From positions 1-62,693 of the forward strand of contig DASXQO010000230.1 of the NCBI GenBank assembly GCA_036507115.1: 62,693 nt of DNA, written 5' to 3'. The notes under the pieces were generated by a model. It did no database searches, was not told where the DNA came from, and saw nothing but the letters and a program-made list of their open reading frames with translations. Source of the DNA: Candidatus Eiseniibacteriota bacterium (GTDB lineage Bacteria > Eisenbacteria > RBG-16-71-46 > SZUA-252). Each line of letters starts with the position of its first letter. Position 1 is the first letter of the stretch. The translations under genes and the position numbers were made by a program. Shown one piece after another: positions 18,348 through 61,932 of the stretch.

Positions 18348-18489
18348 TCGAGGCACACCTCCTTCAGGGGTTTCGTGCAAGGACCCGCGCATCCACAGAA
18401 TGGGGCGGAAGCTTCGAGCCGCTCGCCCGCAGCCGGATGACGCAGGTCAGGGTCGCACTAGATGCACTACGTTGGGAAAACACAACACT

Positions 18490-27212: not shown

Positions 27213-28457
27213 CTAACGCTTGAGCGCGGCGTCGAGGTTCCGGCGCGTCAACGGAAGACTCAGGCTGGGGAGTTCCGCGCGCGCGGACCCCGAGTCCGGC
27301 GCGGCCGGCTCCCCGGGCGAGAGAAAGACCACCACCCCCGGTTTCACGATGCCGAGCCCCTCGAGCCGTTCCAGGACCCAAGGACCGCCCCGAGGCGGGA
27401 GCGTCCGCTCGAGGAGAACCAGGGACGGGGCCCTCCCCGCGGCGACGCGCTCGAGCGCCTGGATCCCGTGCGGTGCCTCCTCGACGACAAGCCCGTGCTG
27501 CTCGAGGAGAATCCGGACCCACGCGCGGACGAGCGGCGAGCGGTGCGCGATCAGCGCCAGCTCGGGATCGGGGGGTTCCTGCGCCCCCATCGCCCGCGCG
27601 GATTCCGACTCCGGATCGGGCAGCTCGTACGCGTATCGGTCCCCCCAGGGGATCGGCACCAAGCCCAGGTCGGAGGCGCCGATCGAGTCCCCTTTGCCCA
27701 GGAGCAGCACCCCGCCGGGCACCAGCGCCCGCGAGAGGTTCTCGAGCGCCGTCCGCCGCCCGTCCGGGGTGAGCGAGGACAGAAACCCGCGCGCGAGGAC
27801 GAGGTCGAAGGTCCCGAGGCAGAGGAGCGCGTCGGATTCGCAGAGATTGACCCGCGCGAATCGGACGTAGGGCCTGAGCGCGCTCGCGACGATTTCGCCG
27901 TCCCGCTCCGTGAAGTAGCGTTCGCGAAGCTCCGTGGGGATCGGCGCCGCGCGCGAGGCGGGGTAGGAGGCGCGGCGGGCGATCGCGACGGCGCGCGCGC
28001 TCAGATCGACGCCGATCACTTCGAATTCGAACGCGGCCGACCGGGAACCCGCCTCAGCGAGCGCGATCGCGAGCGAATAGGCTTCCTCGCCGGTGCCGCA
28101 CCCCGCGCTCAAACACCGGAAGCGGCCCGGGTCGCCGCGCGCGCGCGGTCTGCCGGGATCGGACGCCATCTCGAAGAGGGGCGAGAAATCCCCCGGCTCG
28201 CCGAAGACGCGAGACTCGTTCGCCGTGAGGGTCTCCACGAGGTCGTCCCAGGCCCGGCTGCCCGCGCCGTAGAGGAGATATTCCGCGTAGGCTTCCAGGC
28301 TGTCGAACGCGCGGTCCTGGATCCGATTGCGAAGCCGCTGCGCCACGCCCTCCGGAGCGCACTCCTTGAGCGAGAGCCCCCGCGTCTCGGCGAGACGCTT
28401 CTCCAGCGCCGCGACCGGGCGGCGCGTGAGGTCTTTGCCCCCCCGTTCAGCCGCCAT
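27213..28457 (-). CDS. CheR-type SAM-dependent methyltransferase fused to a degenerate (pseudo) receiver domain
   Basis: CheR_N-like region plus FRCLSAGCGTGEEAYSLAIAL SAM motif. The C-terminal ~115 aa have the CheY fold pattern, but AHRS replaces the acidic pair, E350 (LVLLERTLPP) sits at the phospho-Asp position, and LP replaces KP. Confidence 0.75.
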   Translation of the reverse strand: MAAERGGKDLTRRPVAALEKRLAETRGLSLKECAPEGVAQRLRNRIQDRAFDSLEAYAEYLLYGAGSRAWDDLVETLTANESRVFGEPGDFSPLFEMASDPGRPRARGDPGRFRCLSAGCGTGEEAYSLAIALAEAGSRSAAFEFEVIGVDLSARAVAIARRASYPASRAAPIPTELRERYFTERDGEIVASALRPYVRFARVNLCESDALLCLGTFDLVLARGFLSSLTPDGRRTALENLSRALVPGGVLLLGKGDSIGASDLGLVPIPWGDRYAYELPDPESESARAMGAQEPPDPELALIAHRSPLVRAWVRILLEQHGLVVEEAPHGIQALERVAAGRAPSLVLLERTLPPRGGPWVLERLEGLGIVKPGVVVFLSPGEPAAPDSGSARAELPSLSLPLTRRNLDAALKR

Positions 28458-29868
28458 GCGCCCCCGCCGATTCGATCCGGTATTCCTTGAGCTTCGTCCG
28501 GAGCGTCTGCCTCGAGATGCCGAGCCACTCCGCCGCCTTCGTCTTGTTTCCTCCCGCCTGCCCGAGCGCCATCTCGATCGCGATCCGCTCCGCCTGCGCG
28601 AGCGTCGTGATCCCCCCTTCCCCCTTGAGACGCGTCTCGAGCACCGCGGCGCTCCCGCCCGAGGCGCCGACGATCTCGAGGGGAAGATGCTCGGGGAGGA
28701 TCCACTCGTCGCTCTCGAGGAGGATCGCGCGCTCGATCACGTTCCGGAGCTCGCGCACGTTCCCGGGCCAGCGGTAGGCGAGGAGAAGCTCCAGCGCGCG
28801 GTCGGTGGGCCCCTTCACGTTTCTTCCGAGCTCCCGGTTCCAGTGGCCGACGAAGTGGTCGATCAGGGGCGGGATGTCCTCGGGGCGCTCGCGGAGCGGC
28901 GGGACGAGGATGCGGATCACGTCCAGCCGGAAGAAGAGGTCCTCCCGGAATTTCTCCTGCTGCACGAGTGTTTTCAGATCCCGGTTGGTCGCCGCGATGA
29001 TCCGGGTCTCGACCAGGATGTCGCTCACGCCCCCGAGTCTGCGAAACCGCTTCATGTCGAGGGCGCGGAGGAGCTTCGACTGGAGCGCCAGGCTCATCTC
29101 GCCGATCTCGTCGAGGAAGAGGGTGCCTCCGTTCGCGATCTCCATCAGCCCCTTCTTCGTCCGCTTCGCGTCGGTGTGGCTCCCTCGCTCGTAACCGAAA
29201 AGCTCGCTCTCGAGAAGGGTGTCGGGGATCGCGCTGCAGTTCACCTCCACGAAGGGGCCGTCGTGGCCGGGCCCCAGGTCGTGGATCTCGCGCGCGAGGA
29301 GCTCCTTGCCCACCCCGGTCTCTCCCTGGATCAGCACGGTGGAGCTGCCGGTGGTCGCGATTTTCCGGATCGTCTCGAAGATCTTCGCGAGCTTCGAGCT
29401 TCCGCCCACGATGAGGGTCGAGCCCGCGCGGCGGCGCTCGACGGCGCGGAGCCGCGTCACCTCCTCGGACAGCCGCGTCTGGGAGAGCGCGTTCTTGATC
29501 ACGAGCTTCATGTGGTCCAGCTCGAAGGGCTTTCCGATGTAGTCGAAACAGCCGGCCTTGGTCGCCTCCACCGCGGACTCGAACTTCCCGAACGCGGTCA
29601 TGATCACGACCTGCATCATGGGAAACCGCGACCGGATTTCTTTCAGGAGATCGAGTCCGCTTCCGTCGGGAAGCTTCTGGTCGAGCAGGGCGAGGTGGTA
29701 TTCCTCTCGATTCAGGATCTCCAGCGCCGACGCTTGATCTCCGGCCGTCTCCACCCGATACCCCTCCTCCGAGAGCCCCTCCTTGAGCGCGTACCGGAGC
29801 GTCTTCTCGTCGTCCACGACCAGAATGCCGAAGGTCTGCCTAGCGAGGATTACCACGCCTGTCTCCAT
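28447..29868 (-). CDS. NtrC-family response regulator (REC-AAA+-HTH) with a degenerate GAFTGA loop
   Basis: Canonical REC (VVDDE, LLDQKLPDGSG, IMTAF, GKPF). Walker A GETGVGKE, Walker B LFLDEIGE, WPGNVRELRN, and a Fis-type HTH. ELFGYERGSHTDA stands where ELFGHEKGAFTGA is expected. An alternative start is GTG 29856. Confidence 0.9.
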   Translation of the reverse strand: METGVVILARQTFGILVVDDEKTLRYALKEGLSEEGYRVETAGDQASALEILNREEYHLALLDQKLPDGSGLDLLKEIRSRFPMMQVVIMTAFGKFESAVEATKAGCFDYIGKPFELDHMKLVIKNALSQTRLSEEVTRLRAVERRRAGSTLIVGGSSKLAKIFETIRKIATTGSSTVLIQGETGVGKELLAREIHDLGPGHDGPFVEVNCSAIPDTLLESELFGYERGSHTDAKRTKKGLMEIANGGTLFLDEIGEMSLALQSKLLRALDMKRFRRLGGVSDILVETRIIAATNRDLKTLVQQEKFREDLFFRLDVIRILVPPLRERPEDIPPLIDHFVGHWNRELGRNVKGPTDRALELLLAYRWPGNVRELRNVIERAILLESDEWILPEHLPLEIVGASGGSAAVLETRLKGEGGITTLAQAERIAIEMALGQAGGNKTKAAEWLGISRQTLRTKLKEYRIESAGAHGG

Positions 29869-31036
29869 GTCGTTTCTCCACGGGTAGGTCGATGAGCACG
29901 CTCGTCCCCTGCCCGACCACGCTTTCGATCGAGATGGAGCCTCCGTGCTCGCGGATGATGGTCTGGCAGATACTGAGACCGAGCCCGGTCCCCTGGGTGC
30001 GCGTCGTGTAGAACGGATCGAAGACGCGCGCCAGCACGGCCGCGGGAATCCCGGGACCGTTGTCCTGGATGCGCACCTCGACGAGATCGAGGAGCGGCGC
30101 CGGGCGCCGCGCGCCGAGCCGGTCCCCCGAGCGCCGCCCGAGCCGCGAGCGCTCCGCGAGGCGCTTGCGGACCGGGCCGACGCCGATCGTGAGCTCTCCT
30201 CCCTGGTCCAGCGCCTGGAGCGCGTTCATGAGCACGTTGAGAATGACCTGTAATGTCTGATCCAGGTCGACGTAGACGTCGGGGATCGAATCGGCGCGAT
30301 CCACCCGGATGAGCACGTTCTGCCGCACCGCGACTTCGTGGACGAGCATGAGCGCCTTCTCCAGGGCAGGCAGGATCGATTGGCGCTGGAGTTTCGGCGT
30401 GGCGGGACGGGCGAACTGGAGCAGCCCGGTCACGATGCGGTCGAGGCGCGAGACTTCCTCGAGGATGAGATCGATGAACTGCGCCCGCGGATCCCCCACT
30501 TCCAGCCTGCGCTTCATGACCTGGGCCGAGGTGCCGATTCCCGCCAGGGGGTTGCGGATCTCGTGGGCGACTCCCGCCGCCAGCGCGCCGAGCGAGGCGA
30601 GCCGGTCGCGGCGCCGCCACTGCTCCTCCTGCGCCTTCTGCTCCCGCAAATCCTGAAACAGGGCGATCGTCCCCTGAAGCGAACCGTCGAGCGATTCGAG
30701 CGGAAGGAGCCTCAGCCCGACCGGAAGCACGTCTCCGGACCGGGTTACGACCTCCACCTCGCGCGCCTCCTCCGGCGCGGCACAGGCGCCGGGCGGCACG
30801 TGCGACTCCCCACGCGGCGCGCGCAGGATCCTCGCGACGTCCTCCCCTTCGACTTCCTCCGCGCTGTAGCCGAGAAGCACAGATGCCGCCGGGTTGATGG
30901 CCAGGATGGACGCGTCCCGGCCGATCGCGATCACCCCGAACGGCGCGTGCCGGAGAAAGCTCCACGCCGCGTCTACCGCGTGCTGGCCCGGCGGCGAAGG
31001 CTCGCCGCCCGCGTGGAGAACGCTCCGCGTCCTCAC
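29840..31036 (-). CDS. Soluble PAS-domain sensor histidine kinase
   Basis: No TM segment. PAS (FGVIAIGRDASILAINPAASVLLGY). H-box AHEIRNPL, N-box NVLMNALQA, G1 DNGPGI, and G2 GTGLGL. The GTG start overlaps the HEAT gene stop (GTGA). Confidence 0.9.
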   Translation of the reverse strand: MRTRSVLHAGGEPSPPGQHAVDAAWSFLRHAPFGVIAIGRDASILAINPAASVLLGYSAEEVEGEDVARILRAPRGESHVPPGACAAPEEAREVEVVTRSGDVLPVGLRLLPLESLDGSLQGTIALFQDLREQKAQEEQWRRRDRLASLGALAAGVAHEIRNPLAGIGTSAQVMKRRLEVGDPRAQFIDLILEEVSRLDRIVTGLLQFARPATPKLQRQSILPALEKALMLVHEVAVRQNVLIRVDRADSIPDVYVDLDQTLQVILNVLMNALQALDQGGELTIGVGPVRKRLAERSRLGRRSGDRLGARRPAPLLDLVEVRIQDNGPGIPAAVLARVFDPFYTTRTQGTGLGLSICQTIIREHGGSISIESVVGQGTSVLIDLPVEKRHGDRRGNPR

Positions 31037-32921: not shown

Positions 32922-33107
32922 TCAAGCGGATTCCGGGCGTCCGCGCTCGGTCGGCGCGCCCTCCCGGGCCAGCCGGCGCAGGAGAAGGCGGCTCAGGACG
33001 CGGCGAACCTCGGGGCGGTCGTAGTATCGGTCCCGGATCCGGCGCCTGATTTCCGCCATCCGGGAGGAAGCCTCGATCTCCGGAGCTTCAATTGAGGTTG
33101 GCGGCAC
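32922..33107 (-). CDS. Small FlgM-like (anti-sigma-28 family) protein, tentative
   Basis: MAEIRRRIRDRYYDRPEVRRVLSRLLLRRL resembles the FlgM C-terminal pattern (I..aI..G.Y.vd...vA..ll). The start is GTG 33107 (20-nt overlap with the upstream gene) or ATG 33059. Confidence 0.35.
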   Translation of the reverse strand: MPPTSIEAPEIEASSRMAEIRRRIRDRYYDRPEVRRVLSRLLLRRLAREGAPTERGRPESA

Positions 33108-33423
33108 GGCTGCGGTCCCTCCGAATCGATGCGATCGCTTCGTTCCAACTGTCTTTCAAGTCGGCGAGCACCTCGGCGGCCTCGTCGAAGCGCCCCTCGG
33201 ACGATTCGGAAATGCAGAAGTCCAGAATCCCGAGGACGCGTCCGGCGACCTCCTCGCTCGCGAGCTCCAGACACTGCATGGACTCGCGGAGCGCCTCCTC
33301 GACCACCGGTTGACTTCCCGTCCGGCAGCCGCGCAGGGCGCAATCCAGTAATGCCAGCACTTCGTCGCAACGGCGGAGCCACCGGTCCAGCTCCGCGGGG
33401 TTCTCCTCATAGGTCTGGCTCAC
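33088..33423 (-). CDS. FliS-like helical chaperone, tentative
   Basis: 111 aa, acidic and helical. The C-terminus ...[30 protein letters not shown] closely follows my recollection of the FliS C-terminal helix (LYDYM....EV......AW..I). 4-nt overlap with the csrA stop. Confidence 0.45.
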
Positions 33424-33644
33424 TTCGGCGCGTTCCCCTCACCGTCGTTCTCTTCCGGCTTCAGGGCCTGGGCCCGGCGATTCTCCTCCTGGATCCGCTC
33501 GTAGATCTCCTCGCGGTGAACCTTCACGCTCGGCGGCGCGTCGATCCCGAGCTTCACGTGGTTTCCCTTCACCTCCACGATCGTGATCTTCACGTCGTCT
33601 CCGATCCGGATATTTTCGCCGAGTTTTCGGGTCAGGAGGAGCAT
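33420..33644 (-). CDS. csrA: Carbon storage regulator CsrA (Bacillus-type with C-terminal extension)
   Basis: 74-aa C-terminal part of tracked ORF 33420..34292: [59 protein letters not shown]. Confidence 0.95.
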
Positions 33645-36723: not shown

Positions 36724-37983
36724 TTACGGGATGGGTTCCAGATCGCGGGTGAAGGACTCGTCGAACCCCGTGGTCTTCTTTCCGTCCACGGATTTCTTGC
36801 GAGGCTCGTCGGAGTCGACTCGAATCGATATCTCCACCGTGAGCGTGACGCGTCCCGAGCGGGGAAGCGCGCCGAGATCGATCGGAATCGAGACCCTCCG
36901 GGCGTCTCCCGAGTCCGTGGAGTACCGGACCGAGGGCGCGCTCGAGGCGAGCGAGCCCGGCTCGCGCTCGAAGTCGCCGATGCGTTCCTCCGCCGCCGGC
37001 GCGCTGAGTGCCACGGGCGGGCGCGCGGGCTCTTCGGGGGGAGGATGCGCGATCAGGTCCTCCTCGGTGAGCACCAGCTCTTCCTCGGCGTTGAGCGGCC
37101 TGGGGAAATCCGCCACCGGCACCTCTTCGACCAGTGCCTCGTCCCCGAGGAGGGGGGTCGGCTCGAATACGCTCGGCGCCGCGATCGATCCGGCCGCCGG
37201 GGGCTGCGCGGGCTCTTCCGGTGCCTCGGTTTCCGCTTCCTGCTCCTCGGGCTGCCCCTTGCCGCGCTTCAGGTATTTCAGGAGGTTCCCGCCGGTGGCC
37301 GCGCGCTCCTTCCGGGACGCGGCGTCTTCGGCCCGCGCCTTCTCGGCCGAAGCTTTCGCCTTCGCGAGTCCCGCGACCGCCCCCTTGTCCTTCTCGAGCA
37401 CGTCCTTCGAGATCTTCGCGAGCAGGAGCTTCGAAATCCCGCGCAGGGTTTCGAACACCCCGGTTCCGTTCGCCGCCTGCGCCTCGAACCAGGGAACGTT
37501 CAGCCGATTCAGCTCGCGGTTCATGTCCGCGATCGGCATCGCGGTCGGAAGGTCGCGCTTGTTGAACTGAAGCACGAGCGGAATCGTCCGGATGTCGATC
37601 CCGTACGCTTTGAGATTCATCTCGAGGTTCGCGAAGGACTCACGATTTTCCGTCATCTTGTCCGCGGCGGAGTCCGCGACGAAGACGACAGCGTCGACTC
37701 CCTTCAGCACGAGCTTCCGCGTGGCGTTGTAGTACACCTGTCCGGGTACGGTATAGAGGAGCAGGCGGGTCTTCATGCCCTGGAGGTCGCCCAGGTCCAG
37801 CGGGAGCAGATCGAAGAAGAGGGTGCGGTCGGTCTGGGTCTTCATCGAGACCATGCGTCCACGATTCGTCTCCGGGACGCTGTCGTAGATCTTTTCGAGG
37901 TTCGTCGTCTTTCCGCTGAGACCGGGCCCGTAATACACGATCTTCGCGTTGATCTCGCGTCCCGAATAGCTCACCACCACCAT
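36724..37983 (-). CDS. mglA: MglA-type Ras-like GTPase fused to a 224-aa Pro/Glu/Ala-rich C-terminal extension
   Basis: Residues 1-195 follow MglA almost motif for motif: REINAKIVYYGPGLSGKTTNL, TDRTLFFDLLPL, LYTVPGQVYY, VVFVADS, and QFNKRDLP. Residues 196-419 have no match I recognise. GAGGAG SD lies 8 nt upstream of ATG 37983. Confidence 0.85.
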   Translation of the reverse strand: MVVVSYSGREINAKIVYYGPGLSGKTTNLEKIYDSVPETNRGRMVSMKTQTDRTLFFDLLPLDLGDLQGMKTRLLLYTVPGQVYYNATRKLVLKGVDAVVFVADSAADKMTENRESFANLEMNLKAYGIDIRTIPLVLQFNKRDLPTAMPIADMNRELNRLNVPWFEAQAANGTGVFETLRGISKLLLAKISKDVLEKDKGAVAGLAKAKASAEKARAEDAASRKERAATGGNLLKYLKRGKGQPEEQEAETEAPEEPAQPPAAGSIAAPSVFEPTPLLGDEALVEEVPVADFPRPLNAEEELVLTEEDLIAHPPPEEPARPPVALSAPAAEERIGDFEREPGSLASSAPSVRYSTDSGDARRVSIPIDLGALPRSGRVTLTVEISIRVDSDEPRKKSVDGKKTTGFDESFTRDLEPIP

Positions 37984-38076: not shown

Positions 38077-38091
38077 AGCACGATACGTGCC
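38077..38091 (-). promoter_or_regulatory. Sigma54-type (-24/-12) promoter candidate upstream of the MglA-type GTPase gene
   Basis: The minus strand reads cGGCACGtatcgTGCTc against the consensus TGGCACG-N4-TTGCW, with correct GG-to-GC spacing. It lies about 95 nt upstream of ATG 37983. An AT-rich tract at 38127-38146 lies further upstream. Confidence 0.35.
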
Positions 38092-38262: not shown

Positions 38263-38676
38263 TCAGACTCGGGGATCGCGCCGGATCCAGACTCCCTGTC
38301 GTTCCTTGATCTGGAGCTGGGGCGCTGAGGGATCCGAAACGCTTTCGTAGTGGCGAAGGAGGAGCTCCTTCAATACCGGGTAATCGGGCGACGGAAAGTA
38401 TCGGCTCACGCGGCTGAACATGCCGTCGCGTTCGGAATAGCGGAGAAGATCCACTTCGGTGACCCGTTCGTACTGGTTCTCGCCGTAGGCCGCTTCCGGC
38501 GTCTCGTCCACGTCGATCCAGAGCGACGCCACGCTGCGCGTCACTTCGAATCGGTGCTTGGTCCGCATGAGAAATTCCCAGAGCCCGAAGATTTCCAGCG
38601 GGACGTACCGGACCGTCGCGTCCGCGGCGGAATCCGGTCTCCGAATCTCGCACCGCACCAGCTTCCGACTCGCCAT
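38263..38676 (-). CDS. Hypothetical protein (137 aa)
   Basis: GC-rich third positions and balanced composition (MASRKLVRCEIRRPDSAADATVRYVPLEIFGLWEFLMRTKHRFEV...). AGGGGG lies 6 nt upstream of the ATG. No family recognised. Confidence 0.5.
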   Translation of the reverse strand: MASRKLVRCEIRRPDSAADATVRYVPLEIFGLWEFLMRTKHRFEVTRSVASLWIDVDETPEAAYGENQYERVTEVDLLRYSERDGMFSRVSRYFPSPDYPVLKELLLRHYESVSDPSAPQLQIKERQGVWIRRDPRV

Positions 38677-38807
38677 CGATACCCCCTACGAAGGGACCGC
38701 CTCATGGCATACGCGTTGCACTTGCAATCGTTCCAGAGCTGAGCCAGACGCCCGCGAGAGCGTGCGGTAACGTCTCGCACGTGTCCCGACATCCCGAGGA
38801 GGACGCC

Positions 38808-39005
38808 ATGAAACCGGATCCGCACTCCCCCGCCGCGAGGAACACCGCGAGGCGCGCGACGGAAGTCTATTGCCGGCGCGACAATCGCGTGTACGCGGTC
38901 TGCCCGCACGTCGCGGCCGGGTCGCGCTGTCGCTGCCTCTCCGAGGTCGAGACGGCGGACGCGCTCTTCGAGTCGGATGGAACGGACGCCACCTTCGGCC
39001 ACTGA
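38808..39005 (+). CDS. Small Cys-rich hypothetical protein (65 aa)
   Basis: ATG 38808 is preceded by GAGGAGG with a 5-nt spacer. MKPDPHSPAARNTARRATEVYCRRDNRVYAVCPHVAAGSRCRCLSEVE... has 4 Cys plus His in a possible metal-binding pattern. The tracked ORF starts at an upstream GTG, 38781. Confidence 0.4.
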   Translation: MKPDPHSPAARNTARRATEVYCRRDNRVYAVCPHVAAGSRCRCLSEVETADALFESDGTDATFGH

Positions 39006-39106
39006 GACGCTGGCTCAATTCATCCCACCGTGGGTGAAATGACGCCATCGCGGCCCGGACTCTAGGCGAAGGATTCGCCTCAAGTCAAACAAAAGCCCTC
39101 CTGTCC

Positions 39107-45978: not shown

Positions 45979-47211
45979 TCAGTCCATTTGCTTCCGCATG
46001 AAGGCCGGCACGTCCATGTTGTCCCGGGTGATGGAGCGTCCCCCGAAGGGACGGCGCGGCGACGCGGGCGCCATCCGGTATCCCGGACGCGCCGCTGCCA
46101 CGGCTCCTTCTTCCTCGGGAAGAGACTCCTCCAGAGGCGACCGGACCACGGCCGGCCTCACGGCGCGCTCGCGCGGCTCCATTTCGTAGATCCTGGGCTG
46201 AGGCCCGTGCGCGGCGGCCGGCACTCCCATCGGCCGCTGCTTCGACTCCCCTTTCCCGAACCCGGTCGCGATCACCGTGATCGAGAGACCATCCCCCATG
46301 TGCTCGTCGATCACCGCGCCGAAGATCACGTTGGCGTCGTGCCCCGCGGCATCGACCACGACGGTCACCGCCTCGTTGATCTCGTGGAGCGTCATCGACT
46401 CGCCTCCGGTGACGTTCACGAGCAGCGCTTCGGCGCCGGAAATCGAAACGTCGTCGAGCAGCGGGCTCGAGACCGCCGATTGGGCCGCTTCGTACGCCCG
46501 GTTCGGCCCGGTCGCGTGCCCCGCTCCCATGAGCGCGTTCCCGCGCTCCGCCATGACCGTCTTCACATCGGCGAAGTCCAGGTTCACGAGGCCGGGGACC
46601 GTGATCAGATCCGAGATTCCCTTCGTCGCGTGATGCAGCACCTGGTCCGCCACGCGGAACGCCTCCTTGAGCGGCGTGGTGCGGTCCACGATCGTGAGCA
46701 GCCGCTGGTTCGGGATCACGATCAGCGTATCCACCCGTTCCCGGAGCTCGCGCAGCCCGTCCTCGGCGAGCTGCATACGACGCCGCCCTTCGAACTCGAA
46801 CGGCCGCGTCACGACCGCGACCGTGAGCGCCCCCTGTGCCCTCGCGATGCGCGCGACCACGGGCGCAGCACCCGTGCCCGTCCCGCCGCCCATGCCGGCG
46901 GTCACGAACACCATGTCGGCTCCCTCGAGCGCCTGCGCGATCTGGGCTTCGTCCTCCTCCGCCGCATCACGCCCGACGTTCGGGTTCGCGCCCGACCCGA
47001 GCCCCTTCGTGACGCCCGCCCCGAGTTGGAGCTTCCTCGGGCTGAACGATTGATCCAATACCTGCGCGTCGGTATTGGCCGCGATGAATTCGACCCCGTT
47101 GAGCCCGGACTCGATCATCCGATTCACCGCGTTTCCACCCGCACCTCCGACACCGATCACCTTGATCGAGGCCCCCAGCACCACCTTCCCGTCATCGATC
47201 AACTCGAGCAT
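45979..47211 (-). CDS. ftsZ: Cell division protein FtsZ
   Basis: [26 protein letters not shown], and the C-terminal peptide DVPAFMRKQ. Confidence 0.97.
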
Positions 47212-47239
47212 CGCGTGACTCCTCCCTCCTCCGCTGGCG

Positions 47240-48469
47240 TCAAACCAGCTCCTCGATCCACCGCTTCAACCCGAACGAAATACGGCTCAACACCCCCCGC
47301 TCGGCCGCGCTCGGCCGCGCACCCATCATGTGGGCGTGGATCGCCAGACCCACCCCCGTCGCGAATCGCGGATCGCACACCGCCTCGGTCAGGCCCGTGA
47401 TTCCCATCGGAACCCCGCGCCGGACCGGCATCTCGAAGACCTGCTCCGCTAATTCGGTCATCCCTTCCAAGAGTGAGGCACCGCCGGTCAGGACCACGCC
47501 GGCGCCGAGCAGATCGGCGACGTGGTTCTTCCGGATTTCCTTCTTCCCCAGCTCGAAGATCTCCTCGATCCGGGGCTCGATCATCATCGCGAGCATGTGA
47601 CGCGAAACCTCGCGGTCCTGCCTCCCCCCCACGCTCGGTACCTGCACAACTTCCTTGGGGCTCACCATCGAGGTGAGCGCGCACCCGCTCTGGAGCTTGA
47701 GCTGCTCGGCGCGCTCCACCGGAGTCCTGAGCCCGATCGCGAGATCGTTGGTCACGTTGGCCCCGCCCAGGCCGATCACGGCGGTGTGGCGCACGCTCCC
47801 CTCGTAGAAGATCGCGACGTCGGTCGTCCCTCCGCCGATGTCGAACAGCGCGACCCCCAGATCGCGTTCGTCCGCGGCCAGGACCGCGTCCGCCGAGGCG
47901 AGCGGCTCCAGCACGAGCTCCTCCACCTGGAGCCCGGCCCGCTCCGCGGCGCGGATCACGTTGCGGCACGCGGAAGCGGCGCCGGTGATGATGTGGACCT
48001 CCGCCTCGAGCCGGACGCCCGACATTCCGACGGGGTCGCGGATGCCGTCCTGGTCATCCACGATGAATTCTTGCGGAAGCACGTGGAGGATTTCCCGGTC
48101 CGTGGGGATCGCGACGGCCTTGGCCGCCTCGATCACGCGCTCGAGGTCGTGCGGCCGGATCTCCGCGTCCTTGCGCGAGACCGCGATCACGCCGCGGCTG
48201 TTGATCCCGCGGATGTGGTCCCCGGCGATCCCGGCGAACACCCCGCGGATCGTGCGGCCCGACATCCGCTCCGCCTCCTGGACCGCGTGCTGGATCGACC
48301 GTGTCGTCTTCTCGAGATTCACGACGACGCCGCGCTTGAGTCCGTCGGAGGGCGCTTCGCCCACGCCGATGATGCGGATCCCTTCCCCGTCCTCCTCGGA
48401 CTCCGCGACAATGGCGGTGATCTTCGTGGTGCCGATGTCCAGCCCAGCGTAGATTCTCGCTTCCGCCAT
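47240..48469 (-). CDS. ftsA: Cell division protein FtsA
   Basis: Actin-fold motifs GLDIGTTKI and DIGGGTTD. Position between ftsQ and ftsZ. Confidence 0.95.
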
Positions 48470-48482
48470 CAGGTCCCTCCGG

Positions 48483-49319
48483 TCACACCTTGTCCCGCAC
48501 AGCCGGTACCTCGCCCAAACTGTCTGGAGCGCACCGGACGATCACCTGTCCCCGATATCGGGCGTCCAACACCAGTACCCTCCGATCACGATCGCGCAGG
48601 TCGCGGAGCGTGGCCGCGAGCGCTTTCAAGCAACGCCGCGTCACACGCTCCGGATCGATCAGGATCGGGATCTGATCCCGCGAGGTTCGGAGCACGAACC
48701 ACCGGGGATCGCTCGCGACGATCTCGGAGATCTCGGGCAGGAGCCCGACGTCCGGCGCCTCGAGCAGCGCCACGATACGCAGCACGTCGGCGAACCGGGA
48801 CGCCAGTACCTGCGTTCCCGGACGGTGGGACGCGACCCCCGAGAGTCCGGTCACGACCGGCCGGTCGGCGATCAACCCCCGTGCGAGCGGAGGAAGAACC
48901 GTCCCGGTGGAGTCGACCTCCAGGAGCTTTCCCGCGTTCAGGAGCACGAACGGCCGGCGCTCCCGTACGGAGACGCGGACCGCGGCCGGAAGGAACTCCA
49001 CCTTCGCGCTCTCGATCCGCGGATTGCGCCGGAGCGAGCGCACAATCTCGGCGGGCCGCACCTCGAAGAGGCTCTCCCCCGACTGGACCGGGATCGCCGG
49101 GCGGACCTCCTCGGGAGAGAGGTAGAGAAGGCCGGTCACCTCGACACGCCCCGCCTGGAAGAGCGGGAGCCTCCCGAGAGCGCGCGCGGCAAGCGGCCAG
49201 AGCTTCGCCAGCCCCGCGAGCGCCACCAAGAGCAGGAGCGTCGCGAGCAGGATTCTGCGATTCCTCCTGCGCCGCTCGGGCTGCTTGAGGCGCGCGGTCG
49301 TGCGGCAGCCCGCCCTCAC
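48483..49319 (-). CDS. ftsQ: Cell division protein FtsQ (POTRA domain)
   Basis: N-terminal TM LLATLLLLVALAGL, then a POTRA-like segment VEVTGLLYLSPEEVRPAIPV. GTGA overlap with murC. Confidence 0.85.
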   Translation of the reverse strand: MRAGCRTTARLKQPERRRRNRRILLATLLLLVALAGLAKLWPLAARALGRLPLFQAGRVEVTGLLYLSPEEVRPAIPVQSGESLFEVRPAEIVRSLRRNPRIESAKVEFLPAAVRVSVRERRPFVLLNAGKLLEVDSTGTVLPPLARGLIADRPVVTGLSGVASHRPGTQVLASRFADVLRIVALLEAPDVGLLPEISEIVASDPRWFVLRTSRDQIPILIDPERVTRRCLKALAATLRDLRDRDRRVLVLDARYRGQVIVRCAPDSLGEVPAVRDKV

Positions 49320-50683
49320 GCGGCCCCTCCCCGCGTCAGCTCGCCCACGCGATAGACGTCCCCCGCTCCGATCGTGACGAGGAGATCTCCCTGGCGCAGG
49401 ATCTCGCGAGCAATCTTCGCGGCCTGGCCGAAATCCGCCGCCATCCGCACCGACGCCGTCCCGTTCGCGCGGATGCCCTCGACCAGGATCTCGGAGGTAA
49501 TGCCCGGGATCGCGCTCTCGCCAGCGGGATAGATGGGCAGGAGCACCAGCTCCGAGACGCCGGTGAAGCAGGTCGCGAAACGGTCGCGCAGCGCCTGCGT
49601 GCGCGAGAATCGGTGCGGCTGGAACACGGCGACGATCCTCCTGCCGTAGGTGTCCCGGAGCGCCTGGACCACGGCTTCGATCTCCGTGGGATGGTGCCCG
49701 TAGTCGTCCACCCAGAGCGCTCCCCGTACTTCACCGCGAACTTCGAGCCTCCGGCTCACGCCCGTGAACTCGTGCAGCGCTTCCCGGATCTTGGAAATGG
49801 GGATTCCCAGCTCCCATCCCGCGACGGTCGCGGCGAGCGCGTTCCGCGCGTTGTGGGTGCCGGTGACCCGGAGCTCGAAGACCCCCTCGTCGCGGCCGCG
49901 CGCCCGAAGCCGGTACCGCACGCCGCGCGCGTCCACGTGCAGCTCGGACCCTTCAAAGTCCGCGTCCTTGGTGAATCCGTACGTGAGCAGCCGCCGCTTC
50001 ACCCGGGAACGGAGCGGGGCCACGTTGGGATCATCGTGCGGCAGAACCACCGTGCCGTAGAAGGGGACCCGGTTCACGAAATTCAGGAACGTCTCCTGCA
50101 CGTGGGCGAGATCCTTGTAATAGTCCAGGTGCTCGGCGTCGATGTTCGTCACGACCGCGACCGTCGGCGTGAGCAGGAGGAAGCTGCCGTCGCTCTCGTC
50201 CGCCTCGGCGACCAGGAACGGGCCGTGGCCGAGCCGCGCGTGCGCGCCCACCGCCTTCACTCGCCCTCCGACGATCACGGTGGGATCGAGCCCTCCGTGC
50301 GCCAGGATCTCGCCGACCATCGACGTGGTCGTCGTCTTTCCATGGGCGCCGGCCACCGCCACCGAGTACTTGATCCGCATCAGTTCGGCCAGCATCTCGG
50401 CCCGGGGGATGACCGGGATCGAGCGCTCGTGGGCGCGCTGGATCTCGGGGTTCGATTCCGCGATCGCGGTCGAGGCGACCACGACGTCCGCCCCTTCCAC
50501 CTGCTCCGCGCGATGACCGACGAAGATACGCGCGCCGAGCGACCGGAGCCGTCCCGTGGGCTCCGATTCCTTCAGGTCCGATCCCGAGATCTGGTAGCCC
50601 AGATTCAAGAGCACCTCCGCGATCCCGCTCATCCCGCTGCCGCCGATCCCCACGAGGTGAATCCTCCGGATCCTTCCGTACAT
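49316..50683 (-). CDS. murC: UDP-N-acetylmuramate--L-alanine ligase
   Basis: IHLVGIGGSGMSGIAEVL, VAGAHGKTTTTSM, and DDYGHHPTEI. Confidence 0.95.
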   Translation of the reverse strand: MYGRIRRIHLVGIGGSGMSGIAEVLLNLGYQISGSDLKESEPTGRLRSLGARIFVGHRAEQVEGADVVVASTAIAESNPEIQRAHERSIPVIPRAEMLAELMRIKYSVAVAGAHGKTTTTSMVGEILAHGGLDPTVIVGGRVKAVGAHARLGHGPFLVAEADESDGSFLLLTPTVAVVTNIDAEHLDYYKDLAHVQETFLNFVNRVPFYGTVVLPHDDPNVAPLRSRVKRRLLTYGFTKDADFEGSELHVDARGVRYRLRARGRDEGVFELRVTGTHNARNALAATVAGWELGIPISKIREALHEFTGVSRRLEVRGEVRGALWVDDYGHHPTEIEAVVQALRDTYGRRIVAVFQPHRFSRTQALRDRFATCFTGVSELVLLPIYPAGESAIPGITSEILVEGIRANGTASVRMAADFGQAAKIAREILRQGDLLVTIGAGDVYRVGELTRGGAA

Positions 50684-50689
50684 GCGCTC

Positions 50690-51826
50690 TCAGCTCTCGC
50701 GCGGAATCGGGCTCGCATGGACCAGCGCCTCCATGGAACGCGCGATGCGCTGGGCCGCGTCCACCCGCGCGAACGCCCGCGCGTTTCTTCCCAGGCGGCG
50801 GAGCCGAGGCTCGTCGCGGAGCAAAGACTCGATCTTCTTCGCCAGGGTCTCCGGCGTCAGATCCTTGTCGGCGATCACCAGGGCGGCGTCCCGATCCACG
50901 AGCCCCCGCGCGTTGTGCGTCTGGTGATCCCGGGTCGCGTGGGGGTAGGGCACGAGGATCGAGGCGATGCCGCACGCGGTCAGCTCGGCGATCGTCATCG
51001 CGCCCGCCCGGCAGACCGCGATATCCGCGACCGCGTACGCTTTCTCGATCGCCTCCAGATAGGCGAAGACGCGAATTTTGATCGGAAAGCTCCGGAACCG
51101 GCTCTGCATCGCCTCGAAATCCTCCGCTCCCGTCTGCCAGATCACTTGCAGGGACGGCATCTGCTTCAGGTGTTCCAGCGCCCCCTCCATCGCCCGGTTG
51201 ATGCTCGAAGCGCCCCGGCTCCCGCCGAAGACGAAGAGCGTCCGCTTCTCGGGGTCCAGACCGAACACTTCGTAGGCGCTCGATCTATCTTGCTGCAGCA
51301 GGGAGCGGCGGATCGGATTCCCCGAGACGCGGAGGTTGTTCTTGCGCCGGAAGTATCCCCGCGACTCCAGAAAGCTGATGTGAACCTCGGTCGCGACCAG
51401 GTTGAGCCAGCGATTGGTCGCTCCCGGTATCGAGTTCTGCTCCTGGATGATCACCGGGATCCCGAACAACCTCGCGACCAGGATCACCGGGGCGCTCACG
51501 TAGCTCCCCGTCCCCACCACCACGTGCGGCTTCAGATCCACGATCAGGCGGAACGACTGCGCCAGACCCCTGGCCAGCCCGAACGCCGCGCGGAACCACC
51601 CGAGACCCGGCCGCCGCGGAAGCCCGCGCGCCGCGATCGTCTGGAGCTCGAACCCCGCGCGCGGCACCGCCTTCGTCTCGGGTCCGCGGTTGGTCCCCAC
51701 GAACACCACCTTCGAGTCGGGGTGGGTCCGCATCCACTCCTCGGCAATGGCGATGCCCGGATACAGATGCCCGCCGGTTCCTCCGGCGGCGATCAGCACG
51801 CGGATCGCACCGGCGCTAGCGGCCAC
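50690..51826 (-). CDS. murG: Undecaprenyldiphospho-muramoylpentapeptide beta-N-acetylglucosaminyltransferase
   Basis: AAGGTGGHLYPGIAIAEE, and the C-terminal CRAGAMTIAELTA. Tracked start 51910 overlaps ftsW by 95 nt. I prefer GTG 51826 (11-nt overlap) or GTG 51799. Confidence 0.9.
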   Translation of the reverse strand: MAASAGAIRVLIAAGGTGGHLYPGIAIAEEWMRTHPDSKVVFVGTNRGPETKAVPRAGFELQTIAARGLPRRPGLGWFRAAFGLARGLAQSFRLIVDLKPHVVVGTGSYVSAPVILVARLFGIPVIIQEQNSIPGATNRWLNLVATEVHISFLESRGYFRRKNNLRVSGNPIRRSLLQQDRSSAYEVFGLDPEKRTLFVFGGSRGASSINRAMEGALEHLKQMPSLQVIWQTGAEDFEAMQSRFRSFPIKIRVFAYLEAIEKAYAVADIAVCRAGAMTIAELTACGIASILVPYPHATRDHQTHNARGLVDRDAALVIADKDLTPETLAKKIESLLRDEPRLRRLGRNARAFARVDAAQRIARSMEALVHASPIPRES

Positions 51827-52988
51827 CCGTGCGTTTCCGCGTTGCGGAGCGGGCTCCGGGGCCGGTTCGAATTCCGGTTTTGGTCTGACTTGCGACGTTG
51901 AGTAGGACACCGACCACCCCCAAATTCACGACCAACGCCGAACCTCCATAGCTCAGGAACGGAAGCGGCAATCCGGTCGTCGGGATGATCCCGGTCACCA
52001 CCGAGAGATTCATCCCGACGTAAACGGCGAGACTCACGGTCGAACCGGCCGCGAGCAGAAATCCGAAACGGTCCGGCGCCTTGCCCGCGATCTTGAGCCC
52101 GCGCAGGAAGAGCACCGCGAAGGCGGCCAGCACGGACACGGTGCCGACGAGTCCGAGCTCCTCGCCGATCACGGCGTAGATGAAATCGGTGTGCGGGTCC
52201 GGGAGGAAGAAGAACTTCTGCATTCCGCGCCCCGGACCCTCTCCAAAGATTCCCCCCGATCCGAGCGCCACGATCGATTGGTGGAGCTGCCAGCCCTTTC
52301 CCTGCACGTCGACCCCGGAGGACCAGTGCGAGATCCATCCCTGCACGCGATCCAGCATGTACGGGTGGCGCAGGACCTGGAAGGAGGCGAGGAGCGCTCC
52401 CGCCCCGGCGAGAATCCCCAGATGGCGGGGACGGGCGCCGGCGAGGTGGAGCATGAGGAAGCCGGTCACGAGGAGCGCGATCGTGCTGCCGAGGTTGGGC
52501 TGTTTCAAGATGAGGATCGCGATCAGGCCGAGCACACCCGCCGCCGGGAGCACGCCGTCGCGGAAGGAGCGGATCCGGTCCCCTTTCCGGTCGAGGAGCT
52601 TGGCGAGATAGATCACGCAGGTCGCGCGGGCGATCTCCGTGGGCTGGAGCGTGAACTCGGCGACGGAGAGCCAGCGGTTCGCGCCGCGCACGCCGGCGCC
52701 TCCCAGAACCACGAGTATTGTCAGGAGCCCGACGCTCACGGCCAGGGCCCAGGGCGCGATCGGGACCAGGCGGCGGTAGTCGAGCCGCGCTAAGAAGAGC
52801 ATCACGAGGAGCCCGAGCACGAGCCGCACCGCCTGCCGCTTCAGGAAGAAGAACTGCGAGTGGTACCGGTCCGCGCCCAGGACCGCGCTCGAGGAATAGA
52901 CCATGACGAGCCCCAGGGCGAGGAGCCCCATGACAGGCAGGAGAATCCCCCAGTCGAGCTTCCGCGGAGCCGCGACGGCGGTGCTCAT
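51816..52988 (-). CDS. ftsW: SEDS-family peptidoglycan polymerase FtsW
   Basis: About 10 TM segments. PDPHTDFIYAVIGEELGLVG and PFLSYGGSAL motifs. Confidence 0.95.
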   Translation of the reverse strand: MSTAVAAPRKLDWGILLPVMGLLALGLVMVYSSSAVLGADRYHSQFFFLKRQAVRLVLGLLVMLFLARLDYRRLVPIAPWALAVSVGLLTILVVLGGAGVRGANRWLSVAEFTLQPTEIARATCVIYLAKLLDRKGDRIRSFRDGVLPAAGVLGLIAILILKQPNLGSTIALLVTGFLMLHLAGARPRHLGILAGAGALLASFQVLRHPYMLDRVQGWISHWSSGVDVQGKGWQLHQSIVALGSGGIFGEGPGRGMQKFFFLPDPHTDFIYAVIGEELGLVGTVSVLAAFAVLFLRGLKIAGKAPDRFGFLLAAGSTVSLAVYVGMNLSVVTGIIPTTGLPLPFLSYGGSALVVNLGVVGVLLNVASQTKTGIRTGPGARSATRKRTGGR

Positions 52989-54373
52989 CGGCGCGCCTTC
53001 GTCAGCGAACGTTTCATCTCGAGCACCGCGGCCTCGAACCGCGCGCCGCGCTCCTCGAAGTTCCGGAACATGTCGTAGCTCGCGCAGCCCGGGGAGAGGA
53101 GCACGATTCCGCCGGTCGTAGCGCGGGTGCGCGCGATCTGGACCGCGTCCTCCAGCGTCGCCGCGCGATCGTGGGGCAGGTCGGGCCAGGACTGCGCGAG
53201 CTTCGAGGCGGCCTCGCCGACGTACACCGCGTGGCGGACCCGTTCCATGACGAGCGGCCGGATCGCGACGAAGTCTCCATCCTTGTCCCGGCCGCCTGCG
53301 ATGAGGGTCACGGGCGAAGAGAAGGATTCGAGCGCCCGTTTCAACGCGTCCACGTTGGTCGCCTTCGAGTCGTTTACGTACCGGACACCGTCGATTTCGG
53401 CCACCGTCGCCAACCGGTGCGGCAGTCCGCGGAATTCACGCAGCGCTTTCGCGATCGCGCGCTCCGGGATGCCGACCGCGAGCGCCGCCGCTGCGGCCGC
53501 GGCCATGTTCTCGGTGTTGTGCGGCCCCGGGAGGGCGGCTTCATCGCGGCGGATCAAGGTGCCGGTCTTGCCCGCGAACCGGAACCGGAGGGAATTCCCC
53601 TCGAGCCACACGCCGTCCCCGGTCGGGTCCGCGAACCCGAACCAGATCGGGCGCGACTTCATCGGGCGCAGCAAGAGCTCGATCCGCGCGTCGCCGAGCG
53701 GCTGGACGCGGAATTCCTCTTCGTTCTGGAACTGGAAAAGCCGCGCCTTGAGCCCCGCGTATCGCTCGATGCTGCCGTGCCGGTCCAGGTGGTCGGGGGT
53801 CACGTTGAGCAGTACGCCCACCTTGGGGTGGAACCGTGAGCACGATTCGAGCTGAAAGCTCGAAATCTCGACCACCAGGAGGCCGTCCTCGGGGATGTGC
53901 TCGGCCTTCTCCGAGAGCGCCGTTCCGATGTTCCCGAGCACTTCGGTCTTCCGCCCCGCCGCCCGTCCGATCGCGCCCAGAAGCTCCACGGTCGTGCTCT
54001 TTCCGTTCGTGCCGGTCACCGCGACGATCGGGGCCCGGGCGACGGCGAAACCGAGCTCCACTTCGGCCACGATCGGGATTCCCCGCCGCTCCGCCTCCGT
54101 GAAGAGCGGGAGATCGAGCGGCACGCCGGGACTCACGACCACGAGGTCGCGGCCTTCCAGCTCCCTGGGATCCGTCGAGCCGAATTTGAGCTCCACTCCG
54201 AGATCGTTCAGTTCCCGCACCGTGCTCCCCAGTTCCTCCGAGCGCCTGCGGTCCACGCCGCGGACGCTGCTCCCGTGATTCAGGAGCAGCTTCGACGCCG
54301 CGCACCCGCTCCGCGCCAATCCCACGACCAGCGCTCGGGACCCATCGAACCACGCCTTCGCCTGTTTCGTCAT
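52985..54373 (-). CDS. murD: UDP-N-acetylmuramoylalanine--D-glutamate ligase
   Basis: 462-aa C-terminal part of tracked ORF 52985..54808. VVGLARSG, VTGTNGKSTT, and NDSKATN. ATGA overlap with mraY. Confidence 0.95.
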   Translation of the reverse strand: MTKQAKAWFDGSRALVVGLARSGCAASKLLLNHGSSVRGVDRRRSEELGSTVRELNDLGVELKFGSTDPRELEGRDLVVVSPGVPLDLPLFTEAERRGIPIVAEVELGFAVARAPIVAVTGTNGKSTTVELLGAIGRAAGRKTEVLGNIGTALSEKAEHIPEDGLLVVEISSFQLESCSRFHPKVGVLLNVTPDHLDRHGSIERYAGLKARLFQFQNEEEFRVQPLGDARIELLLRPMKSRPIWFGFADPTGDGVWLEGNSLRFRFAGKTGTLIRRDEAALPGPHNTENMAAAAAAALAVGIPERAIAKALREFRGLPHRLATVAEIDGVRYVNDSKATNVDALKRALESFSSPVTLIAGGRDKDGDFVAIRPLVMERVRHAVYVGEAASKLAQSWPDLPHDRAATLEDAVQIARTRATTGGIVLLSPGCASYDMFRNFEERGARFEAAVLEMKRSLTKARR

Positions 54374-55458: not shown

Positions 55459-55461
55459 CGC

Positions 55462-60475: not shown

Positions 60476-60969
60476 CGGTGACCTCCGGCCTCGACCGGAG
60501 CGGCCGGCAACCCCACGACGCGTTCGGTCAGGAATGACGGCAGCGCCCGGCGCACCTTGCCCAGGATCCTCGCGCCGAGCGCGACCCGGGCACCGCGCCG
60601 CGCGCGCGGCTCCGCGAGATCGACATCCACGACGCGCGCCGGGTCGGGACTCTGAAAGCCGAGCCGGCCCAGGCTCGTGAGGTCGATCCCGCTCCTGAAC
60701 GCGGCCTGCTCCTCGAGGTCGCATGTGATGCGGATCCGGTTCTCGAGCGTTCTCACGTCCCGCGCGAGCCGGTCCCGTTCCATCGAGAGCGAGTTCGCGA
60801 GCGTTCGCTCCCACACCTTCGTGAAGAGGAGCGACGCCGCGACGAGAAGCAGAGCAATCACGCGCAGGCTCACCCGGCGCTTGGGCTGAATCCTGTACGA
60901 GCGCAGGTACGGTCCGCGTGCCGGCGTGCCCTCGGGCGCGTCGGGGAGGAGGCGGGCCGCCAGATTCAC
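60472..60969 (-). CDS. ftsL: Cell division protein FtsL-like (bitopic, coiled coil)
   Basis: 165 aa from GTG 60969 (GTGA overlap with rsmH). TM VIALLLVAASLLF followed by a coiled-coil-like segment SMERDRLARDVRTLENRI. Canonical position. Confidence 0.75.
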   Translation of the reverse strand: MNLAARLLPDAPEGTPARGPYLRSYRIQPKRRVSLRVIALLLVAASLLFTKVWERTLANSLSMERDRLARDVRTLENRIRITCDLEEQAAFRSGIDLTSLGRLGFQSPDPARVVDVDLAEPRARRGARVALGARILGKVRRALPSFLTERVVGLPAAPVEAGGHR

Positions 60970-61880: not shown

Positions 61881-61932
61881 TCAGTTCCTCGGAATCGAGG
61901 TCTTACCGCAAGATGTCGCGGCGGGGCGCCGG

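Follow-up and report, generated by a model that had tools for sequence, protein, structure and literature searches.

The 62,693-nucleotide stretch of contig DASXQO010000230.1 of a Candidatus Eiseniibacteriota bacterium (GenBank assembly GCA_036507115.1), the whole of which we refer to as the window, carries a gene for an unusually long form of the polarity GTPase MglA, which we call mglA-long. Its product joins an MglA-type G domain to a tail of 224 residues, and the gene stands in a conserved module with the order s65 (on the divergent strand), p137, mglA-long, a TPR protein, and trpA (Table 1). MglA is the best-understood bacterial Ras-like polarity switch, and the models of its action rest on the Roadblock GTPase-activating protein (GAP) MglB and on the RomR/RomX exchange factor. 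The G domain of the Eisenbacteria protein is ordinary; what is new at this locus is the tail, together with p137 and s65. We found no description of these three in the literature or databases searched, and none of an Eisenbacteria MglA or of a long-tailed form in the literature.

Residues 3 to 193 of the mglA-long product align without gaps to Myxococcus xanthus MglA (PDB 6h17/5ymx; E 2.2e-70 and 55% identity in a phmmer search of PDB sequences), followed by Thermus thermophilus MglA (E 1.7e-66); the next-best solved structures are Sec4 and Arf, at E 3e-5 or weaker, 65 orders of magnitude below MglA. Pfam gave only a weak Arf match, and no NCBIfam MglA model matched. The four motifs quoted by an earlier reading of the window, made from the letters alone (the sequence-only reading), lie where it had placed them: the P-loop GPGLSGKT at residues 19–26, TDRTLFFD at 51–58, TVPGQ at 78–82 as the G3 motif (Thr taking the place of the usual Asp), and NKRD at 141–144 as the G4 motif. 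The P-loop and G4 motifs are invariant over 82 orthologues. TDRTLFFD holds Arg53, the intrinsic arginine finger (PMC4316618), which is also invariant in the family, and TVPGQ, identical to its counterpart in M. xanthus MglA, holds Thr78, with the role described in PMC3000849, and the catalytic Gln82. Every catalytic residue of MglA is thus kept when the domain is compared with the M. xanthus protein, and the mean majority-residue frequency over the orthologues is 0.92 in the G domain, compared with 0.51 in the tail.

From this sequence evidence we assign mglA-long as the Eisenbacteria orthologue of the polarity GTPase MglA of the M. xanthus/T. thermophilus type (group 1). On all sequence criteria tested, the protein belongs to the MglA family; it differs from canonical members in exceeding single-domain size and in lacking coupling to MglB. 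The M. xanthus and T. thermophilus structures (PDB 5ymx, 6h17, 6izw, and 3t12) share with it the P-loop, Arg53, Thr78/Gln82, NKRD, a near-identical β2 strand, and the residues of a known pocket (L64, L/I67, K/R181, and K185), but these proteins have 195–197 residues against 419 in mglA-long and 380–455 among its orthologues. The published survey of MglA proteins, which predates Eisenbacteria genomes, used a criterion of 150–240 residues and excluded longer relatives (39/488; PMC4316618).

The tail is a genuine part of the gene. At the three codon positions, GC content is 0.58/0.36/0.86 for the G domain against 0.74/0.51/0.85 for the tail, and the even value at third positions (GC3, 0.85–0.86) across the junction indicates that the tail is coding in the same frame. 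Among 5.8 billion proteins, more than 120 distinct 90% clusters of 380–455 residues span 100% of the query and are drawn from four independent sources (JGI, ENA, NCBI, and Logan). In addition, one scan of 185,579 GTDB species genomes returned 34 loci (L001–L034) with the long form, one per Eisenbacteria genome. Apart from the unusual length of the protein, we found nothing to favor an artefact, whether from a frameshift in sequencing, a stop codon that was missed, or mglA joined to a downstream gene in assembly; the full-coverage clusters, the presence of the identical reading frame in 34 species-level genomes, and the uniform GC3 make the probability of an artefact negligible. The fusion proposed by the sequence-only reading is therefore real and its orthologues keep the tail, and both outcomes that this reading had named against itself, a frameshift or missed stop near 37398 and orthologues that all end at ~195 residues with mglB adjacent, are excluded.

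The long-form loci come almost entirely from metagenome-assembled genomes of Candidatus Eisenbacteria; a few have different bin labels, probably through mis-binning. In the most divergent Eisenbacteria loci (L033 and L034), the tblastn alignment reached only residues 1–195, and a closer look revealed Pro/Ser/Ala-rich tails of ~200 residues after the G domain, ending in a β-hairpin-like element. Matches from Planctomycetota, Verrucomicrobiota, and Acidobacteriota stop at about residues 191–223. Searched with a profile built from the tail only, 1.84 billion cluster representatives yielded 17 proteins, all of the mglA-long family and mostly fragments at contig edges, and neither the full tail nor its last 68 residues contains a known domain in Pfam or NCBIfam. 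We class the tail, on this distribution, as a lineage-specific invention and not as a mobile domain.

Tails in the family are ~200–260 residues long and, over the 82 orthologues, consist of sharp conserved islands against a variable background. In mglA-long, the tail opens with a basic Lys/Ala-rich segment, over which AlphaFold2 (AF2) predicts a helix spanning residues 173–221 (predicted local distance difference test score, pLDDT, 66–73), such that helix α5 of the G domain is predicted to run on to ~221. There follows the basic amphipathic segment GGNLLKYLKRGKG, with the family consensus GGKLLKxLKRGKG, in which G232 and K239 are invariant and conservation is at least 90% at K233, L234, L238, R240, G241, and K242; its helical hydrophobic moment (0.81–0.87) is the highest in the tail, and its net charge is +3 to +5. 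The next region is acidic, rich in proline (28 D+E, 6 K+R, and 19 P in residues 244–362), and predicted to be disordered: pLDDT is mostly below 50, and the region falls on the disordered side of the charge-hydropathy plot. Its length differs among orthologues, with repeat expansions in some clades; two loci of one Eisenbacteria clade (L012 and L013) carry 4–5 tandem copies of PEPQI(V/M)RQ in this disordered part. The acidic region contains two acidic-hydrophobic short motifs and the GDFERE motif as conserved islands; in short motif 2, E302, L305, and D309 are invariant or at least 90% conserved, and AF2 predicts a short helix at 307–309.

Toward its end, the tail regains order in the hairpin-like element, two amphipathic β-type strands that flank a conserved LPxSG turn (P367, L370, P374, and G377 invariant). 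This element has a pLDDT of 71–81, lies on the folded side of the charge-hydropathy plot, and has a β-type hydrophobic moment of 0.64–0.77, above its helical value. It is the only part of the tail kept throughout the phylum, with a counterpart at the end of the L033 and L034 tails. Its ~30 ordered residues are too few to fold alone. The sequence-only reading had the order of the tail right (Lys/Ala-rich, then acidic and Pro/Glu-rich, then a hydrophobic end), but the ~60 residues that it took to be folded shrink to the ~30 of residues 362–390. The hairpin is similar to the final two strands of a Calx-β domain; an origin as a PilZ or Calx-β remnant was nevertheless rejected, as the hairpin has no Pfam match and the region before it is disordered. 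One 106-residue database protein (P0255) joins an N-terminal part of a Calx-β domain (Pfam E 3.5e-11, positions 26–78 of 119) to the hairpin at TITVPIDLG, and is either an assembly chimera or a sign that the hairpin corresponds to the final pair of strands in a β-sandwich. These features are best explained by a mostly disordered tail in which short docking motifs are strung together, and not by a domain.

No Roadblock or MglB gene occurs among the open reading frames of at least 60 residues in the window or within ±10 kb of mglA-long in L001–L034. The searches used hidden Markov models (HMMs; E≤1) built from MglB-type and Roadblock-type neighbors of canonical mglA genes in Planctomycetota and Verrucomicrobiota loci, together with the M. 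xanthus MglB sequence (E≤10); the HMMs were validated on the MglB (E 1e-12) and Roadblock entries of the PDB, and the same queries pick up MglB as the neighbor of 20 canonical mglA genes. That mglB is not adjacent, as noted in the sequence-only reading, thus holds for the window and for its 34 relatives, and by the “within four genes” criterion of PMC4316618 we classify mglA-long as an orphan MglA. In the other phyla, arrangements differ: Planctomycetota and Verrucomicrobiota loci have MglB directly downstream of mglA, and in the Planctomycetota loci (L035–L037, L040, L045, L047, L048, and L054) a second Roadblock gene lies directly upstream. For the short MglA genes of Acidobacteriota/Thermoanaerobaculia (L038–L044 and L061–L080), the same HMMs likewise detect no MglB or Roadblock gene within ±10 kb.

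Instead of MglB, mglA-long travels with p137, s65, the TPR protein, and a σ54-type promoter motif. The sequence-only reading judged the 137-residue upstream gene not to be Roadblock/LC7-like, in agreement with our sequence, profile, and fold searches, and then set it aside; we find p137 to be the most tightly linked partner of mglA-long. It is present on the same strand in 33 of the 34 Eisenbacteria loci with 76% median identity (the sole exception, L026, begins at a contig edge) and in none of 46 loci from other phyla. Searches returned 383–576 clusters of homologues, of which the best 120 of the 576 from a profile search are all hypothetical proteins of ~137 residues, and the idea of relatives outside the Eisenbacteria was dropped on this result. 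In p137, H41 and H109 are invariant, and Cys9 is nearly so. The protein has no Pfam, NCBIfam, or PDB sequence match, and its AF2 model (pLDDT 82.5, predicted TM score 0.70), an α/β fold of six strands and two helices, has no Foldseek match in the PDB at E<1e-3 (best TM 0.31).

Several identities were tried for p137 and rejected. As a divergent MglB or Roadblock protein it scores an hhalign probability of 0.1–0.4%, against 44.6% for a Roadblock-versus-MglB control, with Pfam and Foldseek negative. The order of its elements (β-β-α-β-β-β-α-β) recalls a longin domain, but the best Foldseek TM of 0.31 and the negative profile and Pfam searches speak against one. RomX is an 11-kDa, all-helical three-helix bundle (bioRxiv 10.1101/2024.02.20.581209), which fits neither the six-stranded α/β model of p137 nor the four-Cys mini-protein s65, and RomX (PDB 8ZNA) did not appear among the sequence and fold matches, although it is present in the library.

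The gene s65, which the sequence-only reading did not list, encodes a four-Cys protein with a 37-residue core, EVYCRRDNRVYxxCPxxxxxxxCxCLxxxETADxLFE, found in 28 Eisenbacteria loci besides the window and in no locus of other phyla. Its variability by codon position (0.135/0.14/0.307), with third positions twice as variable as first and second, indicates that it is coding; it has no Pfam or PDB match. Downstream of mglA-long lie the TPR gene and trpA, as the sequence-only reading stated, and the former proves to be a conserved operon partner, kept in 30 loci with 65% median identity; by inspection, its product has no signal peptide. The GTG start of trpA overlaps the TPR stop codon (GTGA). In 25 loci trpA comes after the TPR gene, with no adjoining trpB, and trpA is an odd operon partner for a GTPase module; it probably stands outside the switch as a conserved operon neighbor. 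No terminator-like site was found between p137 and trpA.

Both mglA-long and s65 appear to have a σ54-type promoter of their own, two motifs that the sequence-only reading did not mention. The element (-24 GG and -12 GC, TGGCAC-N5-TTGCW, at a fixed distance from the gene) has two matches in the whole window against 0.2 expected. GGCACGTATCGTGCT is found at the same place in 12–14 of 19 orthologous spacers, and GGCATACGCGTTGCA is kept in 29 of 31 loci on the divergent strand, 20–40 nt from the p137 start; both lie ~90 nt upstream of an ATG in a similar GAGGAG ribosome-binding context. The 279-nt spacer between p137 and mglA-long has no Rfam match at E≤0.1, and nothing in it is conserved apart from the σ54-type motif and the mglA-long ribosome-binding site (GGAG), which is kept in orthologous loci. 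One weak σ70-like site was also found. About 7 kb from the σ54-type motifs lie genes for a σ54-dependent response regulator (REC, AAA+, and HTH_8) and a PAS histidine kinase, which adjoin a HEAT-repeat protein and a CheR-like methyltransferase; the regulator and kinase are a possible activator system for the two motifs.

Table 1. Features of the mglA-long locus and other features of the window, with window positions
Feature	Position	Strand	Basis or remark
mglA-long	36724..37983	-	419 codons, ATG start, TAA stop; coordinates and translation checked
MglA G domain, residues 1–195	37399..37983	-	similarity to solved MglA, residue-by-residue comparison
Tail, residues 196–419	36727..37398	-	
Basic Lys/Ala-rich segment, residues 196–230	37294..37398	-	composition, charge, AF2
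GGNLLKYLKRGKG, residues 231–243	37255..37293	-	near-invariance in alignments
Acidic proline-rich disordered region, residues 244–361	36901..37254	-	AF2, charge-hydropathy, composition
Acidic-hydrophobic short motif 1, residues 274–287, EPTPLLGDEALVEE (consensus EPTPLLSDDALIEE)	37123..37164	-	conserved island
Acidic-hydrophobic short motif 2, residues 298–311, NAEEELVLTEEDLI	37051..37092	-	conserved island
GDFERE motif, residues 336–341	36961..36978	-	conserved island; R340 at least 90% conserved
β-Hairpin-like element, residues 362–390, RRVSIPIDLGALPRSGRVTLTVEISIRVD	36814..36900	-	conservation, AF2, charge-hydropathy
Basic stretch, then C-terminal peptide SFTRDLEPIP, residues 391–419	36727..36813	-	conserved island; E416 at least 90% conserved
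p137, 137 residues, no known family or fold	38263..38676	-	directly upstream of mglA-long; synteny, searches
TPR protein, 340 residues	35655..36677	-	start 46 nt after mglA-long stop; Pfam TPR families to E 1.8e-42
trpA, 271 residues	34843..35658	-	Pfam Trp_syntA E 1.2e-75; start-codon scan
s65, 65-residue four-Cys protein	38808..39005	+	divergent from p137; conserved core, coding signature
σ54-type -24/-12 motif GGCACGTATCGTGCT	38077..38091	-	93 nt upstream of mglA-long ATG
σ54-type motif GGCATACGCGTTGCA	38706..38720	+	87 nt upstream of s65 ATG
σ70-like site, weak	39088..39059		
σ54-dependent response regulator and PAS histidine kinase	28447..31036	-	regulator at 28447..29868
csrA, then 111-residue open reading frame	33088..33641	-	csrA by Pfam, E 3.6e-25
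497-residue open reading frame	16899..18392	-	coding statistics
Division/cell-wall cluster and recG	45979..62000	-	

A pocket on the G domain suggests how the parts of the module could work together. In M. xanthus MglA, this pocket is formed by K181 and K185 of α5 and by L64 and I67 of the β2-β3 loop, and the Asp-rich C-terminal helix of MglB (DDDIDNLF) binds it and drives nucleotide exchange (PMC6785124). The positive α5 residues are conserved mainly in those MglAs whose partner has an acidic helix (PMC6785124), and the Glu-rich helix of RomR, which follows a long disordered linker, is able to replace the MglB helix (PMC6785124; bioRxiv 10.1101/2024.02.20.581209). The corresponding residues of mglA-long are L64, L67, R181, and K185, all invariant in the family, and some acidic helix very likely binds their α5/β2-β3 pocket. 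Candidates in the tail are DEALV, EEELV, and EEDLI. A further one is the invariant C-terminal ETADxLFE of s65, which resembles the C-terminal helix signature of MglB (DIDNLF, KLDDLF, and SADDVF) more closely than the tail motifs do, since it keeps the Phe.

We consider it rather probable, from the patterns of conservation and gene order, that mglA-long encodes a long-tailed MglA regulated both in cis and by its partners. In such a switch, the basic helix and the GGKLLKxLKRGKG motif would hold the GTPase at the membrane or on an acidic partner, and an acidic-hydrophobic helix, supplied in cis by the tail (DEALV, EEELV, or EEDLI) or by s65 (ETADALFE), would fill the pocket. The terminal hairpin and the C-terminal peptide would tether p137 and/or the TPR protein, which would serve as GAP or guanine nucleotide exchange factor (GEF) and as effector or scaffold; TPR domains typically bind extended or C-terminal peptides, and p137 is the strongest candidate for a GAP or GEF that is not a Roadblock protein. 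The specific mechanism in which the pocket is filled in cis is more tentative, and we consider it less likely than not. Unlikely, though worth stating, is a self-contained, Roadblock-independent switch with a tail gated by nucleotide as in Ran or Arf, an acidic helix of the tail or of s65 in the pocket in one state, p137 as a new class of GAP or GEF, and the TPR protein as effector; here release of the acidic helix from the pocket would expose GGKLLKxLKRGKG for membrane binding.

Several observations weigh against this reading of a switch regulated in cis and by partners. The acidic motifs of the tail lack the terminal Phe typical of MglB helices, and an MglB-style regular expression has no match in the tail. 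The GGKLLKxLKRGKG motif is internal and only 9–11 residues long (about two helical turns), and it is missing, as are the acidic motifs, from the L033 and L034 tails, which leaves the hairpin alone universal. The full-length AF2 model is poor (mean pLDDT 57), with values below 45 for residues 1–70 because the near-invariant G domain yields no covariation. The genome could encode MglB, RomR, or RomX at another site, in which case the conservation of the pocket needs no explanation in cis. Lastly, the conserved gene order beside housekeeping genes (dcw, recG, and trpA) could partly be general synteny, and the linkage to trpA and the divergent acyltransferase/GT4/MFS operon may for this reason look stronger than it is.

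An alternative holds that the tail is a passive tether or spacer for localization, that the GTPase is run by an MglB (with RomR/RomX) encoded elsewhere, and that p137, s65, and the TPR protein are unrelated neighbors. This would account for a tail whose middle varies in length and sequence, with repeat expansions, and of which only the hairpin is universal in the phylum; it also agrees with the conservation of the β2 strand and switch residues used by MglB, with the position of the locus among housekeeping genes, and with the 59 of 449 small MglAs that are uncoupled from mglB in the published survey (PMC4316618). A spacer has no need, however, of several motifs that are nearly invariant over 82 orthologues; p137 and s65 are found only with mglA-long, p137 being more conserved than the tail, and the spacing is operon-like and the two σ54 motifs are matched, both of which point to co-regulation. 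We regard a purely passive tail as somewhat improbable. The conserved short motifs fit the role in localization or cis-regulation that the sequence-only reading proposed better than they fit a spacer, but its further suggestion that the tail replaces MglB is unsupported. Nothing indicates a Roadblock GAP function in the tail, which is largely disordered and contains no part resembling Roadblock; at most, it could imitate the acidic helix at the C-terminus of MglB or RomR.

The module may also serve an envelope or cell-cycle process other than motility or polarity, as a σ54-regulated switch tied to division and envelope genes. In favor of this, genes for type IV pili, gliding, or a Frz-type system are absent from the window, ftsZ/ftsA/ftsQ and the dcw cluster are ~8 kb away from the locus, and a divergent operon of an LpxL-type acyltransferase, a GT4 glycosyltransferase, and an MFS protein is syntenic in most loci. 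Against this, 62.7 kb devoid of motility genes says little about a genome of at least 3 Mb, a CheR-like gene and a σ54 response regulator lie nearby, and 55% identity to M. xanthus MglA with all functional residues kept makes a conserved core role likelier; we view an envelope or cell-cycle function as possible but doubtful. Far less credible is that mglA-long encodes a SofG-like paralogue, a second, specialized GTPase of the MglA family, instead of the MglA orthologue. SofG of M. xanthus is indeed a known family member with extra length (239 residues; PMC4316618) and with no MglB of its own paired to it. The parallel drawn by the sequence-only reading is nevertheless a poor fit: mglA-long lines up with MglA from residue 1 onward, lacks an N-terminal extension, and shows a much higher, gapless identity to MglA; its tail is ~5 times the extra length of SofG over a 195-residue MglA; and the scan returned one such locus per Eisenbacteria genome. 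The partner of SofG is the bactofilin BacP (PMC4085708), and we saw no bactofilin gene at the mglA-long locus.

The layout of a switch regulated in cis and by partners has partial counterparts in known systems. As in the MglB helix and in the linker and helix of RomR, an Asp/Glu-rich amphipathic segment ends a flexible proline-rich stretch, here arranged in cis. In MglB and RomR, however, the acidic helix is carried by a Roadblock or receiver-domain protein, whereas the candidate motifs here are on the GTPase itself or on a four-Cys mini-protein. Furthermore, the acidic motifs of the tail end in Ile or Val and the MglB helices in Phe; the MglB C-termini (DIDNLFSE, KLDDLFG, and SADDVF) are close to ETADxLFE of s65. 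SgmX, a TPR protein of ~1060 residues, is an effector of MglA-GTP in M. xanthus and is not encoded beside mglA. The 340-residue TPR protein resembles it in its repeats and its link to MglA, but is encoded in the mglA-long operon; it matches NCBIfam NF052243 weakly (E 1.3e-5), a similarity of the kind that TPR repeats share in general and no evidence of orthology to SgmX.

Eukaryotic small GTPases offer a further analogy in the acidic C-terminal DEDDDL switch of Ran and in the amphipathic helix of Arf that sits in the interswitch/α5 groove, each docked or released according to nucleotide state; MglA further resembles Arf in that its interswitch strand shifts register. The likeness is one of analogy only, as there is no sequence relationship, the tail is ~10 times longer, and nucleotide-dependent docking in mglA-long is purely hypothetical. 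MinD and FtsA carry membrane-targeting amphipathic helices (KKGFLKRLFGG in Escherichia coli MinD) that are, like GGKLLKYLKRGKG, short, rich in Lys/Arg and Leu, and flanked by Gly, and the hydrophobic moment of the Eisenbacteria segment is at least as high. The MinD and FtsA helices are C-terminal, in contrast to GGKLLKxLKRGKG, which is internal and near-invariant, as is more typical of a protein-binding site.

The Eisenbacteria thus combine a near-invariant MglA core (92% column conservation) that is uncoupled from mglB with a disordered tail bearing short motifs and with three uncharacterized partner genes. This makes their MglA a natural experiment on the rewiring of the α5/interswitch pocket and of GAP and GEF functions, and nominates two orphan families, p137 and s65, as candidate regulators of small GTPases. 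As the components of the module are small and soluble-looking, these hypotheses are open to in vitro work despite the uncultured hosts.

The surroundings of the module are largely housekeeping. Pfam annotation of ~40 genes of the window identifies a dcw cluster with ftsZ/A/Q, recG, fatty-acid synthesis, tgt, def, and csrA, and no pilus, gliding, Frz, or Rom genes. The division and cell-wall cluster (mraW, a PASTA penicillin-binding protein, murE/F-type ligases, mraY, ftsW, murG, murC, ftsQ, ftsA, and ftsZ) and recG lie 6–8 kb from the mglA module, an order that recurs in related loci with long enough flanks. A 497-residue open reading frame has strong coding statistics (GC3 0.87) and no Pfam match at E≤0.001. 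Finally, csrA is followed in 18 loci by a conserved 111-residue open reading frame that has no Pfam match and could encode a partner of CsrA.

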